Under the pieces are notes generated by a model, which saw only the letters and a program-made list of their open reading frames with translations, made no database searches and was not told the origin of the DNA. A program made the translations under genes and the position numbers. 43,165 nt of DNA from a virus (Duplodnaviria; Heunggongvirae; Uroviricota; Caudoviricetes), in IMG/VR virus record IMGVR_UViG_2541047954_000002, positions 1-43,165 of that record; one strand, given 5' to 3'. Of the stretch, positions 9,399 through 41,926 are shown piece after piece; positions within the stretch are counted from its first letter, which is position 1; each line of letters starts with the position of its first letter.

Positions 9399-9439
9399 CT
9401 GTTGTTTATGCCAAAAATAAAGGACGATTATGCGACCTC
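9399..9439. repeat. Copy 2 of the 41-bp direct repeat (degenerate hairpin)
   Basis: Same 26-bp core as copy 1; lies between the stop of the 9428..10051 gene and the start of the 8894..9364 gene. Confidence 0.85.
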
Positions 9440-10051
9440 GGAAGGAAGTCCAATCATCTTATTCAAATCTTCTACCCGTAAAGCAGGAAGTGCAGTACTT
9501 GCTTTATCTGCTTCTTTTGGTAGCAACTCTTTGCTTTCAGGCCAAACTTCAATAAGTCGCTTAACTGTTGTGACTGAGTTCAAAGCAGCCCATACATTTG
9601 ATTCGATATCCTTTTTCTTGGCTTCAAATTTTTGTTGCAATGCGCAGATTTCATCAAACCTTTTTGTTATTTCGTGTTCTGCGCTAAACATGCATTTATC
9701 TTTGGTCGGAGTAGGGAGCAATATATCTTCGCCGTTGCCGTCTTTCCCATATGAATACCAGCCAACCCTTCTGCCAGATACAGTCAGATAAATTGAAGTT
9801 GAACGGGCATCGCATGAGTAAAATGAACATCCCAGCTTTTCAAGTTCTTCACTTATAGCTACTAACTTGGATGATAACTGATCCACTTCCTCAGTTTTCT
9901 TTTTACCGCCAAACGCAATAACTCTGGCGTCAAGTGCAAGCTGGTTATTTAACTTTGTTACTTCTTCAAGTTCAGTGAAAACCCCGGACTTAATTAAAGC
10001 GTTACGAGCGATTTTCTCTTTCATTCTCGTAGTTAAGCGGATTGATGACAT
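9428..10051 (-). CDS. Hypothetical protein, 207 aa, first gene downstream of N in the pL operon
   Basis: ORF with GAGAGGAA SD before the ATG at 10051, 11 nt after the N stop; AT-rich; no family recognised. Confidence 0.5.
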   Translation of the reverse strand: MSSIRLTTRMKEKIARNALIKSGVFTELEEVTKLNNQLALDARVIAFGGKKKTEEVDQLSSKLVAISEELEKLGCSFYSCDARSTSIYLTVSGRRVGWYSYGKDGNGEDILLPTPTKDKCMFSAEHEITKRFDEICALQQKFEAKKKDIESNVWAALNSVTTVKRLIEVWPESKELLPKEADKASTALPALRVEDLNKMIGLPSEVA

Positions 10052-10062
10052 ATTAATTCCTC

Positions 10063-10389
10063 TCAAATAAGTGGTTTGCTGCCTAATTTCATTTTCTGGC
10101 GACCAACACAAGTCACACCCATTTCACTGCGTGGCTTGCTGTACCATGTGCGCTGATTCTTGCGCTCAATACGTTGCAGGTTGCTTTCAATCTGTTCGTG
10201 GTATTCAGCCAGTACCGTAAGGTCTATCGGATTCAGTGCGCTTTCTACTCGTGATTTCGGTTTGCGATTCAGCGAGAGAATAGGGCGGTTAACTGGTTTT
10301 GCGCTTACCCCAACCAACAGGGGATTTGCTGCTTTCCATTGAGCCTGTTTCTCTGCGCGACGTTCGCGGCGGCGTGTTTGTGCATCCAT
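10063..10389 (-). CDS. N: Antitermination protein N (lambda-type), 108 aa
   Basis: MDAQTRRRERRAEKQAQWKAANPLLVGVSAKPVNRPILSLNRKPKSRVESALNPIDLTVLAEYH... matches lambda N including the arginine-rich motif. Confidence 0.95.
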   Translation of the reverse strand: MDAQTRRRERRAEKQAQWKAANPLLVGVSAKPVNRPILSLNRKPKSRVESALNPIDLTVLAEYHEQIESNLQRIERKNQRTWYSKPRSEMGVTCVGRQKMKLGSKPLI

Positions 10390-16737: not shown

Positions 16738-16904
16738 TTGACCAAAATCGAAGTTACGAACAAGAAAGCGTCGAGCGAGCTTTAACGTGTGCTAACTGCG
16801 GTCAGAAGCTGCATGTGCTGGAAGTTCATGTGTGTGAGCACGGCTGCGCAGAACTGAGGAGCGATCCGAATAGCTCAATGTACGAGGAAGAAGACGATGA
16901 ATGA
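16734..16904 (+). CDS. ninF: NinF (GTG start), 56 aa
   Basis: [40 protein letters not shown] matches lambda NinF; GTGA overlap with the ninE stop. Confidence 0.75.
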
Positions 16905-17619
16905 GTTAATAAATGGCAATGCCATCAAAATGACAAGCATTGAAATCGCTGAGTTGGTGGGTAAGCGTCATGACAATGTGAAACGTACCATCGAAACGCT
17001 GGCTAAAAATGGTGTTATCCGGCTTCCTCAAATTGAGGTTTCCGAAAGAATCAATAACTTAGGGTTCAATGTTCAGTACGAGCATTACGTCTTCGAAGGC
17101 GAACAAGGTAAGCGAGACAGTATTGTCGTTGTTGCCCAGTTGTCGCCGGAATTCACCGCTCGCCTTGTTGACCGCTGGCGAGAGCTTGAAGAAGCTGCGG
17201 TTAGTATCCCCAAAACGCTACCAGAAGCGTTGCGCCTTGCTGCTGATCTTGCTGAGCAGAAAATGCAACTGGAAAACCAGCTCGCAATTGCCGCACCTAA
17301 AGTTGAGTTTGCCGATCGCGTTGGCGAGGCCAGCGGAATTTTGATTGGAAACTTTGCAAAGGTTGTCGGTATTGGTCCAAACAAACTGTTTGCGTGGATG
17401 CGCGATCACAAAATCCTTATTGCTTCAGGTTCCCGGCGCAATGTGCCAATGCAGGAATATATGGATCGCGGCTATTTCACAGTGAAAGAAACAGCGGTCA
17501 ACACAAATCACGGAATACAGATATCGTTCACCACAAAAATCACCGGGCGTGGTCAACAGTGGCTGACCAGAAAGCTGCTCGATAACGGAATGCTGAAAGT
17601 AACAGGGGAGGCTGCTTAA
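16897..17619 (+). CDS. Antirepressor-like protein: N-terminal Rha (pRha) domain + C-terminal KilA-C/AntA-type domain, 240 aa
   Basis: N-terminus resembles Rha-family proteins (compare the 20865..21401 gene); C-terminal half resembles phage antirepressor KilAC domains. Confidence 0.65.
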   Translation: MNELINGNAIKMTSIEIAELVGKRHDNVKRTIETLAKNGVIRLPQIEVSERINNLGFNVQYEHYVFEGEQGKRDSIVVVAQLSPEFTARLVDRWRELEEAAVSIPKTLPEALRLAADLAEQKMQLENQLAIAAPKVEFADRVGEASGILIGNFAKVVGIGPNKLFAWMRDHKILIASGSRRNVPMQEYMDRGYFTVKETAVNTNHGIQISFTTKITGRGQQWLTRKLLDNGMLKVTGEAA

Positions 17620-18268: not shown

Positions 18269-18453
18269 ACGCCACAATTCAAACGATACCAGAGCTTCTT
18301 ATCAAGACACGAGGCAATCAGACCGAAGTGGCGAGGATGCTTTCCTGCGCAAGAGGAACGGTGCTCAAGTACAACCGAGACAGCAAAGGCGAGCGTCACG
18401 TAATAGTTAACGGCGTCCTGATGGTCACGCCAGGCAAAAAGGGAAGACGATGA
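18265..18453 (+). CDS. ninH: NinH-like protein, 62 aa
   Basis: KTIPELL...GNQTEVARMLSCARGTVLKY...IVNGVLMV parallels lambda NinH. Confidence 0.7.
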   Translation: MNATIQTIPELLIKTRGNQTEVARMLSCARGTVLKYNRDSKGERHVIVNGVLMVTPGKKGRR

Positions 18454-18968
18454 GCATAAGAGAGCTAAATCTCACCAAAGAACAGCACGAGTGGCTGAAT
18501 GGCTGGCTTGAACTGTGGGGCGCATGGGTTTATTCAGGTCGTCTGGAAAAGCGCATGGGCAGCGTAATAGCGAAGTTCATGGAGAGCGTAGAGCCGGGAA
18601 GAGTTATGACAAGGCCAATGTGTAATGATGATGATGGAATGTTGATTTCTCAGGTCGTCGATTCCGTCATGTACATTGACAAGAAAGCCTTTGGCATCCT
18701 CCTCAGCTACTACGCTCATGGTTCATCTAAGCGAGCAATTGCATCCTACTATCACGCGACTGCAAAGCCACGCAAGATGTGTGGACGTGGTGGCGAGGGA
18801 TGGAGAAAACCTTCACTGGCAACCTGTAGAAACGAAATTGACGACATCCTGAAAGCATCGTTATTTGTTTTGTACCAGCCAATGCAAAATGCTTTCAAAA
18901 TGCGTAAACGTGTTGAGAAAGTTAAGCATGTTGCTGTTAAAAGCCTTGACATGCAATTATCCATTTAG
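18450..18968 (+). CDS. Late-gene antiterminator Q-like protein, 172 aa
   Basis: Last gene of the nin operon, directly upstream of a pR'-like promoter, terminated leader and the lysis cassette; family identity not verified. Confidence 0.55.
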   Translation: MSIRELNLTKEQHEWLNGWLELWGAWVYSGRLEKRMGSVIAKFMESVEPGRVMTRPMCNDDDGMLISQVVDSVMYIDKKAFGILLSYYAHGSSKRAIASYYHATAKPRKMCGRGGEGWRKPSLATCRNEIDDILKASLFVLYQPMQNAFKMRKRVEKVKHVAVKSLDMQLSI

Positions 18969-18975
18969 CCATAAT
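18946..18975 (+). promoter_or_regulatory. Candidate late promoter pR' (-35 TTGACA, 18-bp spacer, -10 CATAAT)
   Basis: Near-consensus sigma70 hexamers overlapping the Q stop codon. Confidence 0.4.
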
Positions 18976-18987
18976 TAGAAGGTAAGC

Positions 18988-19030
18988 TGCCGTTAGTGAC
19001 TCTTAAGTTGCAACGGTGGCTTTTTTTATT
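18988..19030 (+). terminator. Candidate tR'-like terminator of a short leader transcript
   Basis: Palindromic segment (CCGTT...AACGG / GTTGCAAC) followed by GGCTTTTTTTATTT. Confidence 0.35.
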
Positions 19031-19031
19031 T

Positions 19032-19106
19032 GGGTCAGTCGTATAAAGGTCATTACGGAAGGCTGTTAACCTTCTTATCGTGGTTCGAGCCCACGCTGTC
19101 CCGCCA
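19032..19106 (+). tRNA. tRNA gene, anticodon GUU by hand folding (tRNA-Asn-like), encoded CCA
   Basis: Hand-folded cloverleaf: acceptor GGGTCAG/CTGTCCC (one mismatch), anticodon stem GAAGG/CCTTC with loop CTGTTAA, T-arm CGTGG-TTCGAGC-CCACG, 3' GCCA. Confidence 0.5.
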
Positions 19107-19111
19107 AACAT

Positions 19112-19187
19112 GCTGGTTTAGCTCCAATGGTAGAGCAGTCGCCTTGTAAGCGAATGGGTAGCGGTTCAAGTCCGTTAACCAGCACCA
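19112..19187 (+). tRNA. tRNA gene, anticodon UGU by hand folding (tRNA-Thr-like), encoded CCA
   Basis: Perfect 7-bp acceptor GCTGGTT/AACCAGC, D-arm GCTC..GAGC, anticodon loop CTTGTAA, T-arm AGCGG-TTCAAGT-CCGTT, 3' ACCA. Confidence 0.65.
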
Positions 19188-19428
19188 TAACTGAGCCGTA
19201 GCCACTGGCTATCCTGAATTCATCAGTGATAGTTACGCTGCGGCCTTCTCACATGACCTTCGTGAAAGCGGGTGGCATGAGGTTGCGCTAACAACCTCCT
19301 GCCGTTTTGCCCGTGCATATCGGTCACGAACAAATCTGATTACTAAACACAGTAGCCTGGATTTGTTCTATCAGTAATCGACCTTATTCCTAATTAAATA
19401 GAGCAAATCCCCTTATTGGGGGTAAGAC

Positions 19429-19752
19429 ATGAAGATGCCAGAAAAACATGACCTGTTAGCCGCCATTCTCGCGGCAAAGGAACAAGGCATCGGGGCAATC
19501 CTTGCGTTTGCAATGGCGTACCTTCGCGGCAGGTATAATGGCGGTGCGTTTACAAAAACAGTAATCGACGCAACGATGTGCGCCATTATCGCCTGGTTCA
19601 TTCGTGACCTTCTCGACTTCGCCGGACTAAGTAGCAATCTCGCTTATATAACTAGCGTGTTCATCGGCTACATCGGTACTGACTCGATTGGTTCGCTTAT
19701 CAAACGCTTCGCTGCTAAAAAAGCCGGAGTAGAAGATGGTGGAAATCAATAA
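19429..19752 (+). CDS. S: Holin S (lambda S107/S105 dual-start), 107 aa
   Basis: [77 protein letters not shown]... matches lambda S. Confidence 0.97.
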
Positions 19753-20713: not shown

Positions 20714-20864
20714 TATAGGTATTTCACCGCGCACCGCAGCGCACAATAACCACCGAACCTGACCCTTTGGAATGGGCCTTTGAGGATACCAGTTAGTGCT
20801 GGCGAGCCTCGGTGGGCTGGTTTCCTGTGCGGCAAAGGTTCATTTCGAAGTAGCAGGTAACGCC

Positions 20865-21401
20865 ATGAATGAATTAATTGTGAATCATGACTTTGACTTT
20901 CGCCAGTTAGTTACCGCAGCAGAAGGTCAACCGGTAACTGACACCTTCCAGATCGCAAAGGCATTTGGTAAGCGTCATGCGGACGTATTGAGGGCGCTGA
21001 AAAATTGTCATTGCTCTGAAGATTTCCGGAGAGCGCATTTTTGCGTTGCCGAAAAAATCAATGACTTAGGGATTTTTGACAAGAAACAGATTTACTACCG
21101 CATGGACTTTAGTGGCTTCGTTATGCTGGTCATGGGATTTAATGGCGCAAAAGCCGACGCTGTTAAAGAGGCCTATATAAATGCCTTTAACTGGATGTCT
21201 GCAGAACTCCGTAAGTACAGCGAAAGTTATGAAGCAGAACGCAACGCCATAATGCTGGAGTATATGAAAGAGAAGGATGTCGCCAGTATGTCTGGCCGCC
21301 TGCTCAATCGCTGGGGAAAAATTAAGAAGCCTCAGCTACTGGCGAGAATTGAACGCCTTGAACAGCACGGGCAAACCGTAATCCCCGGACTCACTAATTA
21401 A
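20865..21401 (+). CDS. Rha-family phage regulatory protein, ~179 aa
   Basis: N-terminus MNELIVNHDF...FGKRHADVLRAL parallels the Rha domain of the 16897..17619 gene; located between the lysis and packaging genes. Confidence 0.65.
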   Translation: MNELIVNHDFDFRQLVTAAEGQPVTDTFQIAKAFGKRHADVLRALKNCHCSEDFRRAHFCVAEKINDLGIFDKKQIYYRMDFSGFVMLVMGFNGAKADAVKEAYINAFNWMSAELRKYSESYEAERNAIMLEYMKEKDVASMSGRLLNRWGKIKKPQLLARIERLEQHGQTVIPGLTN

Positions 21402-27172: not shown

Positions 27173-28426
27173 ATGGCTAACCAATTAGCAAAAGACCTTG
27201 AAATCATGTTCGAAAACTACGTTGAAGGCTTTGAGGCCGCCTGCGTAGTTTCCCGTAACGCTAAAAAATTCCGTCCCGGTGATACAGCAATGCAGCGAGC
27301 AGGTGATGTTCTGTATCGTCCGCAGCATTACCACATGAACATTGAGGAAGGCCTCGATCTCAGCAGCAAAACGCCTACAGCACTGGTTCAGCGCCTTGTT
27401 CCTTCTGTGTTCAAGGAGCCGAAAAACATTCTGTACACTCTGGATGCGCGTGAAATGCGTGACCCTGAGCATAAAACTGAAGCTGGTCGCGCCGCAGGTA
27501 TGCGCCTTGCTGCACAGATTGACTCTGACCTGATTTCCATGGTTACGCAGCGTGCTACTAACGTGATCACAATGTCTGACTCAACCACAGGTACACAGGG
27601 CCGTGATTTGTGGAACTGTGCGGCAGGTATTGATGCCACCATGACGGCGATTGGTGTACCGCAGGGTATCAACCGTCGCTCTTTCTGGAACCCCTTCAAC
27701 TACAAAGACCTTGCTGGCGAGCTTGGTCACCGTGCCTACGCTCAGGGCGCAACCCTGACAGCATACGAAAAAGCGCAGATCCCTCCGGTTGCTTCCTTTG
27801 ATAGCTACAAGACCGATATTTCTGGTCGATTACCGAAAGGAAGCGCTGAATCCTTGACAGTATCAGGCCAACCTGAACACAAGGTTGAAGCGAAAGATTC
27901 AAATGGTATGCCAGTTGATAACCGACAGGGGACTATTACGGTATCTGCATCTGGCTTGCAGGTTGGTGATGCGTTCACCATTGCCGGTGTGAATTCCGTA
28001 CACCAGATCACAAAAGATACCACCGGGCAACCGCAGGTATTCCGTGTTCTGGCTGTTAGCGGAACTACCGTAACAATCTCTCCAAAGATTCTCCCTGTTG
28101 AAAATACCGATGTTGCGAGTCGTCCATATGCAAACGTCGATGCCAAACCGGCAGAATCAGCAGCAATCACCATTCTCAACAAGAACGCAGCACCTGCTAA
28201 CCTGTTCTGGGCTGATGGTTCTGTTGAGCTGATGTACGGCAAACTAGCGTTCCCGACTGGTCAGGGTCCACAGGTAATGACAGCAACCACCGAGCAGGGC
28301 GCTACGCTGATCATGTCTTACGCCTTCGACCACATCAAAGGCGTAACCACTGCTCGTTTCACCACTCTGTACGGTTGCTCTGTACTTGTTCCTGAATATA
28401 CGGGCATCGTTATTGCCGGGCAGTAA
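27173..28426 (+). CDS. Major capsid (coat) protein, P22 gp5-like, 417 aa
   Basis: Size and position; segment ILNKNAAPANLFWADGSV parallels the P22 coat; strong terminator immediately downstream. Confidence 0.85.
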   Translation: MANQLAKDLEIMFENYVEGFEAACVVSRNAKKFRPGDTAMQRAGDVLYRPQHYHMNIEEGLDLSSKTPTALVQRLVPSVFKEPKNILYTLDAREMRDPEHKTEAGRAAGMRLAAQIDSDLISMVTQRATNVITMSDSTTGTQGRDLWNCAAGIDATMTAIGVPQGINRRSFWNPFNYKDLAGELGHRAYAQGATLTAYEKAQIPPVASFDSYKTDISGRLPKGSAESLTVSGQPEHKVEAKDSNGMPVDNRQGTITVSASGLQVGDAFTIAGVNSVHQITKDTTGQPQVFRVLAVSGTTVTISPKILPVENTDVASRPYANVDAKPAESAAITILNKNAAPANLFWADGSVELMYGKLAFPTGQGPQVMTATTEQGATLIMSYAFDHIKGVTTARFTTLYGCSVLVPEYTGIVIAGQ

Positions 28427-41449: not shown

Positions 41450-41926
41450 TTAACTAAACATCGCAGTAATCGAGGCACTCGCCAGAGAGTGAAAATGAAC
41501 GTTAAACCCGACCATCGCGCCGCTGGCACCTTCATCGACATCAATACGTTCTACATCCAGCGCGTGAACGGTAAAAATGTAGCGATGGGTTTCGCCTTTC
41601 GGCGGCGCTGCGCCATCGTACCCGGTTTTACCAAAGTCGGTACGCGTCTGCAAAACGCCGTCTGGCATAGCTACCAGACCAGAGCCAAACCCTTGCGGTA
41701 ATACGCGGGTATCAGCGGGTAAATTAACAACTACCCAGTGCCACCAGCCGGAGCCGGTTGGCGCATCCGGGTCATAGCAGGTGACAACAAAACTTTTCGT
41801 TCCCACAGGAACATCATCCCACGCCAGATGCGGTGAAATATTATCGCCATCGTAACCCATGCCGTTAAAGACATGACGATGCGGCAGCTTATCGCCATCG
41901 CGCAGATCGTTACTGATGAGTTTCAT
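41450..41926 (-). CDS. ybhB: Host YbhB (PEBP/Raf-kinase-inhibitor-like family protein), 158 aa
   Basis: MKLISNDLRDGDKLPHRHVFNGMGYDGDNISPHLAWDDVP... recognised as E. coli YbhB, the attB-flanking gene on the bio side. Confidence 0.9.
   Translation of the reverse strand: MKLISNDLRDGDKLPHRHVFNGMGYDGDNISPHLAWDDVPVGTKSFVVTCYDPDAPTGSGWWHWVVVNLPADTRVLPQGFGSGLVAMPDGVLQTRTDFGKTGYDGAAPPKGETHRYIFTVHALDVERIDVDEGASGAMVGFNVHFHSLASASITAMFS

Follow-up and report, generated by a model that had tools for sequence, protein, structure and literature searches.

We analysed a 43,165-nucleotide (nt) stretch of viral DNA, IMG/VR record IMGVR_UViG_2541047954_000002, which is called the window below and is always meant at its full length. 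The window is a mosaic prophage of Escherichia coli that is P22-like (Lederbergvirus-type) and closest overall to CUS-3, Sf6, and their relatives. Its late leader carries two adjacent transfer RNA (tRNA) genes, one for tRNA-Asn and one for tRNA-Thr, which lie between the late terminator tR' and the lysis genes. ARAGORN, run on the whole window, calls exactly these two tRNAs, both on the + strand. The features of the locus are as follows (ORF, open reading frame).

18450-18968, +: gene of the late antiterminator Q, phage-21 type, 172 amino acids (ORF; PHROG 943 'anti-termination protein Q-like', E = 1e-92)
18946-18975, +: late promoter pR', TTGACA-18 nt-CATAAT, 11/12 of the sigma-70 consensus, overlapping the end of Q
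18976-19031, +: short late leader with tR' (hairpin ~18986-19020, T7-A-T3 at 19021-19031)
19032-19106, +: tRNA-Asn, anticodon GUU (gtt), 75 nt, discriminator G73 (ARAGORN, Rfam)
19107-19111, +: spacer AACAT between the two tRNA genes, 5 nt, read from the sequence
19112-19187, +: tRNA-Thr, anticodon UGU (tgt), 76 nt, A73 (ARAGORN, Rfam)
19188-19428, +: lambda-type leader before S (conserved hairpin ~19195-19244; a second one, terminator-like, 19274-19303)
19429-19752, +: holin gene S, dual start MKM of the lambda S107/S105 type (ORF; annotated in Sf6 as holin and holin inhibitor)

Both genes are genuine elongator tRNA genes and their products are predicted to be functional. They match the Rfam tRNA model RF00005 with 53.0 bits (tRNA-Asn, E = 1e-8) and 61.5 bits (tRNA-Thr, E = 4.7e-11), for a gathering score of 29, and both matches span model positions 1-71, that is, a full-length cloverleaf. 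The anticodon arms read GAAGG/CUGUUAA/CCUUC in tRNA-Asn and GUCGC/CUUGUAA/GCGAA in tRNA-Thr, in which a G27.A43 mismatch leaves a stem of 4 bp. The anticodon loops, CUGUUAA and CUUGUAA, respectively, have 7 nt, U33, and a purine at position 37. The T-loops, TTCGAGC and TTCAAGT, agree with the GTTCRA motif of elongator tRNAs. In E. coli, asparaginyl-tRNA synthetase recognizes G34, U35, and U36 of the GUU anticodon together with G73, and threonyl-tRNA synthetase recognizes G1-C72, C2-G71, G35, and U36; all these identity elements are found in the respective tRNA. The first-pass annotation, made from the sequence alone, had placed two tRNA genes here, with the anticodons GUU and UGU obtained by hand folding and with an encoded CCA. 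ARAGORN and Rfam agree with this location and its boundaries, ARAGORN reads the same anticodons, and the 3' CCA is indeed present in the DNA of both genes. The imperfect acceptor stem and short D-stem that it described in the first tRNA correspond to a U.U at the fourth acceptor pair and to a U13.U22 mismatch that leaves three pairs in the D-stem.

The order of the locus is pR', a leader of ~50 nt, tR', tRNA-Asn, 5 nt, tRNA-Thr, the lambda-type leader, and the lysis genes S, R, and Rz, S being the late operon's first protein-coding gene. The promoter scan, the folding, and the ORFs thus bear out the earlier description of the tRNA genes as lying between a pR'-like promoter with a T-rich terminator and S. 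The Q protein is 81% identical to phage 21 Q, and the pR' sequence is that of the annotated late promoter pR' in Sf6 and HK75. The Sf6 annotation places the qut region within the leader that follows the promoter (18976-19031). The GC-rich hairpin of tR' folds with −21.5 kcal/mol (z = −4.7), and none of 200 shuffled sequences folds as well; a simple terminator scan misses it, the motif falling outside the limits of the scan, but folding shows that the hairpin is real. The tR' region is identical to the terminator region of phage 21 and is called terminator/qut in the Sf6 record and 'aRNA' in that of phage 21. Downstream of the tRNAs, the leader 19188-19428 is strongly structured (−61.4 kcal/mol, z = −5.4) and near-identical in lambda, HK75, and Kapi1. 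Its terminator-like hairpin, GGCAUGAGGUUG...CAACCUCCUGCC followed by GUUUU (window 19274-19308), lies between tRNA-Thr and S, so that the tRNA genes are bracketed by two terminator-like structures. In phage L, a terminator is annotated 3' of the tRNAs.

The scan of the + strand upstream of the tRNA genes found pR' alone. A separate tRNA promoter was considered and rejected as unsupported: pR' is the only promoter upstream, and tRNA-Asn begins directly 3' of the T-run of tR', which leaves no space for another. As pR' is the sole detectable promoter and tRNA-Asn abuts the T-run, the tRNAs would be made from pR' transcripts that pass tR'. From this layout we naturally infer, as the first-pass annotation had proposed, late expression by Q-dependent read-through of tR', with which the Sf6 annotation is consistent. 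Transcripts extending beyond tR' would become massive once Q modifies RNA polymerase and would probably arise at a low level, by leakage, in lysogens. The host RNase P and 3' processing nucleases would then release the tRNAs from the transcript. In the transcriptome paper on lysogens of BTP1, a phage that carries the same module with 98% identity, the two tRNA genes are set apart in the list of genes above 100 transcripts per million, and the apparent start (5' end) of the late, lytic operon lies directly after them. These data suggest that the tRNAs may also be abundant in lysogenic, mostly uninduced cultures.

The same two observations, the abutment of tRNA-Asn on the T-run, such that a cut by RNase P would remove the leader precisely, and the position of the BTP1 5' end, could also be accounted for if the tRNAs were RNA-processing punctuation, that is, RNase P and RNase E signals freeing the late mRNA from the pR' leader and terminator, with decoding as a secondary function. 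We find this very improbable. Lambda, HK75, and many relatives work with sequence other than tRNA in the slot. Furthermore, punctuation does not need strict conservation of anticodons, identity elements, and CCA, all of which are conserved, and in PMC12445682, cell rescue by a tRNA-Thr identical to that of the window is reported to require the UGU anticodon class.

The locus as a whole is already known: it is the phage-21/Sf6-type late-leader cassette of lambdoid and P22-like phages, and it is routinely annotated. Over 521 nt around the tRNAs, the window is 98.3% identical to Shigella phage Sf6 (AF547987), whose curated record gives pR', qut, tR', tRNA-Asn, and tRNA-Thr in the same order, each labelled as similar to phage 21. 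The tRNA pair is 99.4% identical over 171 nt to that of phage 21 (AJ237660), and ARAGORN calls tRNA-Asn and tRNA-Thr in this record too. The tRNA-Thr is identical to that of phage 21 over 76/76 positions, and also to that of Sf6; the tRNA-Asn agrees at 74/75 positions with both, the T-loop base that differs being C in the window and T in the two phages. Between the start of the tR' hairpin and the end of tRNA-Thr there is virtually no difference from phage 21, whereas the promoter and Q-binding region of the window match Sf6 and differ from phage 21. The Sf6 genome was reportedly published in 2004. The genome paper of phage L, whose own two-tRNA region is 89% identical overall to that of the window, mentions the Asn and Thr tRNAs of Sf6 at the same location. 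At least 80% of the tRNA pair is covered in 59 phage records. Among 5426 complete E. coli genomes, the cassette is found in 353-369 (~6.5%), in which PGAP annotates tRNA-Thr and tRNA-Asn. It is 95-100% conserved across phages of Escherichia, Salmonella, Shigella, and Klebsiella.

The tRNA genes had been described in the first-pass annotation as inserted between the terminator and the lysis genes. Their position between tR' and S holds, but replacement of one cassette by another describes them better than insertion. In Kapi1, the same cassette lies behind a lambda-type Q and tR', and the sequence becomes similar to the window precisely in the T-run of the terminator. At the right end of the cassette, directly after the CCA of tRNA-Thr, the window is again similar to lambda and HK75 from AACTGAGCCGTAGCC on, and these two phages have ~205 nt of unrelated sequence between the T-run of tR' and AACTGAGCCGTAGCC. 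Expanded arrays occupy the Q-to-holin slot elsewhere: Asn-Phe(GAA)-Thr-Arg(UCU) in the Klebsiella phage ST16-OXA48phi5.2 (L007 801-1120) and Asn-Phe-Thr in the Flyfo siphovirus (L016 701-938). In both, the tRNA-Phe gene sits inside the 5-nt spacer between the Asn and Thr genes. Homologues of the Asn and Thr genes occupy this position behind Q and the late promoter in phage L, the Klebsiella phage, and Flyfo, but the composition of the cargo differs. The breakpoint in Kapi1, the other cargo of lambda and HK75, and these expanded arrays show that the content of this mosaic joint varies between phages, the tRNAs being one of several alternatives and not a simple insertion. The Q-to-lysis slot of the Shiga toxin (Stx) phage 933W carries ileZ-argN-argO, tRNA genes of unrelated specificity that read rare Ile and Arg codons.

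In phage L, the second late-leader tRNA (L006 688-759) is annotated as tRNA-Leu(UAA), and ARAGORN makes no call there. This gene looks like a shortened and diverged form of the tRNA-Thr of the window, being 4 nt shorter around the anticodon arm. As ARAGORN does not recognize it, it probably represents a decaying or repurposed tRNA-Thr gene and not one for Leu.

A different element fills the slot in HK75 (L002 ~1405-1535). It is tRNA-like, ~130-143 nt long, and also occurs with 94% identity in ~93 Salmonella siphophages, among them Skate (L013 601-742), where it adjoins a tRNA-Ile, and, at 78%, in the Pantoea phage PdC23 (L012 601-744). RNAalifold gives a five-armed structure consisting of an acceptor stem, a D-arm, a 55-nt arm, an arm with a 5-bp stem and a 7-nt loop, and a canonical T-arm, and eight pairs in this fold are compensatory (double changes). 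ARAGORN makes no call on the element; Rfam yields only a sub-threshold match of 20 bits, to the tRNA-like domain of transfer-messenger RNA, and one record labels an element of this type tRNA-Ser. This tRNA-like element lies outside the window and may be more novel than the tRNA pair itself.

Comparison of the cassettes across genera points to selection on the structure of the tRNAs. The Klebsiella phage copies differ from those of the window at 12 positions, 10 of which form 5 compensatory pairs, and the other 2 are in variable T-loop positions. The compensated pairs are the sixth and seventh acceptor pairs and 28-42 in tRNA-Asn, and 3-70 and 6-67 in tRNA-Thr. No pair is disrupted in these copies, and the U.U mismatch of the acceptor stem is kept. 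Compensatory pairs are seen in the Flyfo copy of tRNA-Thr as well. The anticodon stem of the tRNA-Thr genes of P1-like phages and of Cyrano contributes three more such pairs; in all, these Thr genes show four compensatory pairs relative to the window and none that is broken. Across genera, every stem substitution is compensatory or conservative.

These observations bear on the idea that the genes are neutral passengers or decaying pseudo-tRNAs, acquired by illegitimate recombination at the mosaic joint and kept by hitch-hiking. The two U.U mismatches of tRNA-Asn, the alternative cargoes of a slot that is a recombination hot spot, and the degenerate derivative of the Thr gene in phage L, without an ARAGORN call, would be expected of such passengers. 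Conversely, the U.U mismatches are themselves conserved, as is the whole cassette at 95-100% in phages of the four genera, the stem substitutions do not disrupt pairing, and a tRNA-Thr identical to that of the window is functional in vivo according to PMC12445682. We give this idea hardly any credence.

Recent capture from the host was also considered as an origin and rejected, the E. coli genes thrU and asnT being only 72% and 62% identical to the phage genes, respectively, and other phage Thr genes 82-83%. The latter are those of the P1-like phage RCS47 (L015 1425-1578) and the T5-like phage Cyrano (L005 1473-1625), in which Asn(GUU) and then Thr(UGU) are adjacent in tandem as in the window. 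While their Thr genes are closer to that of the window than host thrU is, their Asn genes belong to a different lineage, with 58-64% identity to that of the window, and, unlike in the window, these tandems sit outside a late-leader context. Their tRNA-Thr also has, unlike that of the window, both CNG motifs and a full 5-bp anticodon stem, two features that matter for the nuclease Old discussed below.

Supply of codons is the usual explanation for phage tRNAs, and the tRNA pair would indeed supply decoding of ACA and AAC/AAU during late protein synthesis. We compared strand-restricted sets of prophage ORFs with the annotated genes of E. coli MG1655. ACA makes up 0.29 of the Thr codons in the late genes, 0.28 in the early-right genes, and 0.38 in the early-left genes, compared with 0.17 in ordinary host genes and 0.065 in host genes for ribosomal proteins and elongation factors; the odds ratio for late genes versus ordinary host genes is 2.0. 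The enrichment is therefore about twofold, but phage-wide and not concentrated in the late genes. As to Asn, the late genes contain 46.8 codons per thousand compared with 42.2 in ordinary host genes, a difference that is not significant, and the fraction of AAC is 0.53 compared with 0.50 (p = 0.40). Thus, of the enrichment in late genes that the first-pass annotation had put forward as a check, the part concerning ACA was found, though not as a property specific to late genes, and the part concerning AAC/AAU was not. The host has four asn tRNA genes, asnT, asnU, asnV, and asnW.

On the simplest account, the tRNAs would only raise the level of decoders for codons that the phage prefers, and nucleases would play no part. 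The ACA codon is twice as frequent as in ordinary host genes and 4-6 times as frequent as in ribosomal genes, and tRNA-ThrU is described in PMC12445682 as the only reader of ACA in E. coli and as one of low abundance. As ACA is read only by this scarce tRNA, codon supply can account for the phage tRNA-Thr. It does not account for tRNA-Asn. The authors of the phage L genome argued for codon supply by tRNA-Asn on the basis of 24/25 AAC codons in the coat gene, and a coat-sized gene of the window (27173-28426) similarly has 15 AAC and 3 AAT. However, the use of Asn and the AAC fraction of the late genes taken together are close to those of ordinary host genes. The ACA enrichment moreover peaks in the early-left genes, whose translation comes too early to benefit from a Q-dependent tRNA. 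Codon supply also leaves the redesign of the anticodon stems unexplained, as it does the protection that the identical tRNA-Thr is reported to give when host tRNA-ThrU is destroyed (PMC12445682). We therefore regard codon supply as the sole role of the pair as doubtful, although it deserves more weight than the two alternatives discussed above.

The redesign of the anticodon stems leads to the nucleases that attack them. According to Govande et al. (NAR 2025, PMC12445682), the P2 Old protein kills cells when P2 interferes with lambda: it removes the anticodon arm from host tRNA-ThrU by cuts that follow the C in each of two paired CNG motifs (positions 28-30 and 40-42). As reported there, cells are rescued from Old by phage tRNA-Thr(UGU) genes, and tRNAThr21 of phage 21 both protects Old+Gam+ cells and resists cleavage by Old in vitro, owing to C28U/G42A and a shortened anticodon stem; overexpression of host thrU is no substitute for the phage tRNA in maintaining the viability of Old+ cells. 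The tRNA-Thr of the window is tRNAThr21, 76/76, an identity established through the GenBank record of phage 21. It has U28/A42 where the host has C28/G42, together with the G27.A43 mismatch, and positions 28-30 and 40-42 read UCG and CGA. It thus shows the altered CNG motifs and the shortened stem of the tRNAThr21/tRNAThr6 class as described in PMC12445682. Because the published experiments were done on an identical molecule, resistance to Old can be attributed to the tRNA-Thr of the window. The tRNA-Thr of RCS47 and Cyrano, which keeps both CNG motifs and the full stem, is predicted to be sensitive to Old.

A second nuclease, AriB of the PARIS system, targets Lys(UUU), Thr(UGU), and Asn(GUU) tRNAs (PMC12409363). 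Its cleavage site is 40/41 within the motif U36AAUC/A41, with U39 being critical, and full rescue from PARIS takes the T5 variants of all three tRNAs (PMC12409363). Positions 36-41 are UAAGCG in the tRNA-Thr and UAACCU in the tRNA-Asn of the window, compared with UAAUCA in host thrU and UAAUCC in host asnT. Host asnT also carries paired CNG motifs, CGG/CCG, and the tRNA-Asn of the window has none (AAG/CUU). The loss of U39 and of both CNG motifs suggests that this tRNA-Asn, too, may be resistant. Both phage tRNAs therefore lack the determinants reported for Old and AriB; for tRNA-Thr and Old this is published, and for the remaining combinations it is inferred from the sequences. Two of the three anticodon specificities of the T5 set that evades PARIS are shared with the window, whose substitutions at positions 39 and 41 are near the 40/41 cut. 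The G39 of the window tRNA-Thr is common to T5, but overall identity to the T5 tRNAs is only 60-66%. G39, and not the U39 of the host, is in fact present in every phage tRNA-Thr(UGU) that we compared: the lineage of the window and phage 21, including Klebsiella and Flyfo, and the genes of RCS47, Cyrano, and T5.

Taken together, these data make it reasonably probable, although far from assured, that the two genes are genuine functional tRNAs of the known cassette which decode ACA and AAC/AAU and whose anticodon stems have been rebuilt against Toprim-family nucleases. The rebuilt stems would be cut poorly by the Toprim-family anticodon-arm nucleases of rival mobile elements. More tentatively, and with somewhat less than an even chance in our estimation, tRNA-Asn might not serve codon supply at all and might instead complete, with tRNA-Thr, a cassette of two tRNAs dedicated to countering such nucleases. 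The pair would then stand in for the two host tRNAs that both P2 Old and PARIS-type AriB attack, and a shared nuclease pressure would explain why the Asn(GUU)-Thr(UGU) tandem recurs in lambdoid and P22-like, P1-like, and T5-like coliphages. Three modestly new observations, namely, a tRNA-Asn that lacks both nuclease motifs, G39 across phage tRNA-Thr, and the recurrent Asn-Thr tandem, support, without proving, a two-part countermeasure.

Several points weigh against a counter-defence role. The known trigger of P2 Old is the RecBCD inhibitors Gam and Abc2, and neither was recognized by PHROGs among the early-left ORFs of the window, where Erf, SSB, an Arf-like small protein, Kil, and an N-like protein were. 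Old may therefore not be a pressure on this particular phage: the RNA is the same as tRNAThr21 of phage 21, but the carrier here is a P22-like prophage without recognizable Gam or Abc2. The rescue by tRNAThr21 was measured, as given in the available part of PMC12445682, as cell viability and not as phage plating. As regards PARIS, ARAGORN found no tRNA-Lys(UUU), the prime AriB target of the T5 set, among the tRNAs of the window, and this tRNA is required for escape (PMC12409363); without it, the pair alone should not defeat the AriB that was studied. The tRNA-Asn variant of the Klebsiella phage regains both CNG motifs, and their loss is thus not obligatory. Some of the loss of motifs could be incidental, as anticodon stems differ between any diverged tRNAs. 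Finally, as regards expression, the phage L paper calls the transcription route of such tRNAs unknown.

The value of these results is one of annotation and interpretation, since annotation of the cassette dates back to the Sf6 genome record and a 2025 paper has described what the identical tRNA-Thr does. In ~6.5% of complete E. coli genomes, prophages bear the cassette and with it, probably, a ready countermeasure to the tRNA-cleaving defences of P2-like phages and satellites. If tRNA-Asn is also resistant to nucleases, an annotation that now reads 'two tRNAs' would become a defined two-part counter-defence module.

The remainder of the prophage is organized, from left to right, as an integrase gene; an early-left operon with Erf, SSB, and Kil; the repressor, O, P, and the nin region; and then the phage-21-type Q, the tRNAs, the lysis genes, and P22-type virion genes. 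Prompted by the precedent of Gifsy-1, we looked for a self-encoded tRNA nuclease or other defence gene in it; PADLOC and Pfam found none, only Nmad5 and Ead/Ea22 domains. The early-left gene 9428-10111 (−) encodes a full-length Nmad5 domain (nucleotide modification associated domain 5, E = 4e-70) and has no PHROG function. Two genes encode Ant/Rha-like anti-repressors or regulators: one at 16897-17619 (+), in the nin region, and one at 20796-21401 (+), directly after the lysis cassette and before the terminase genes. The prophage is flanked on the left by a gene with a pectinesterase domain (1-1284, −) and on the right by a PEBP-family gene (41450-41926, −). They resemble ybhC and ybhB, the genes that flank attB of phage lambda. 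If the flanks are ybhC and ybhB, a P22-like virion module would be joined here to lambda-type integration.

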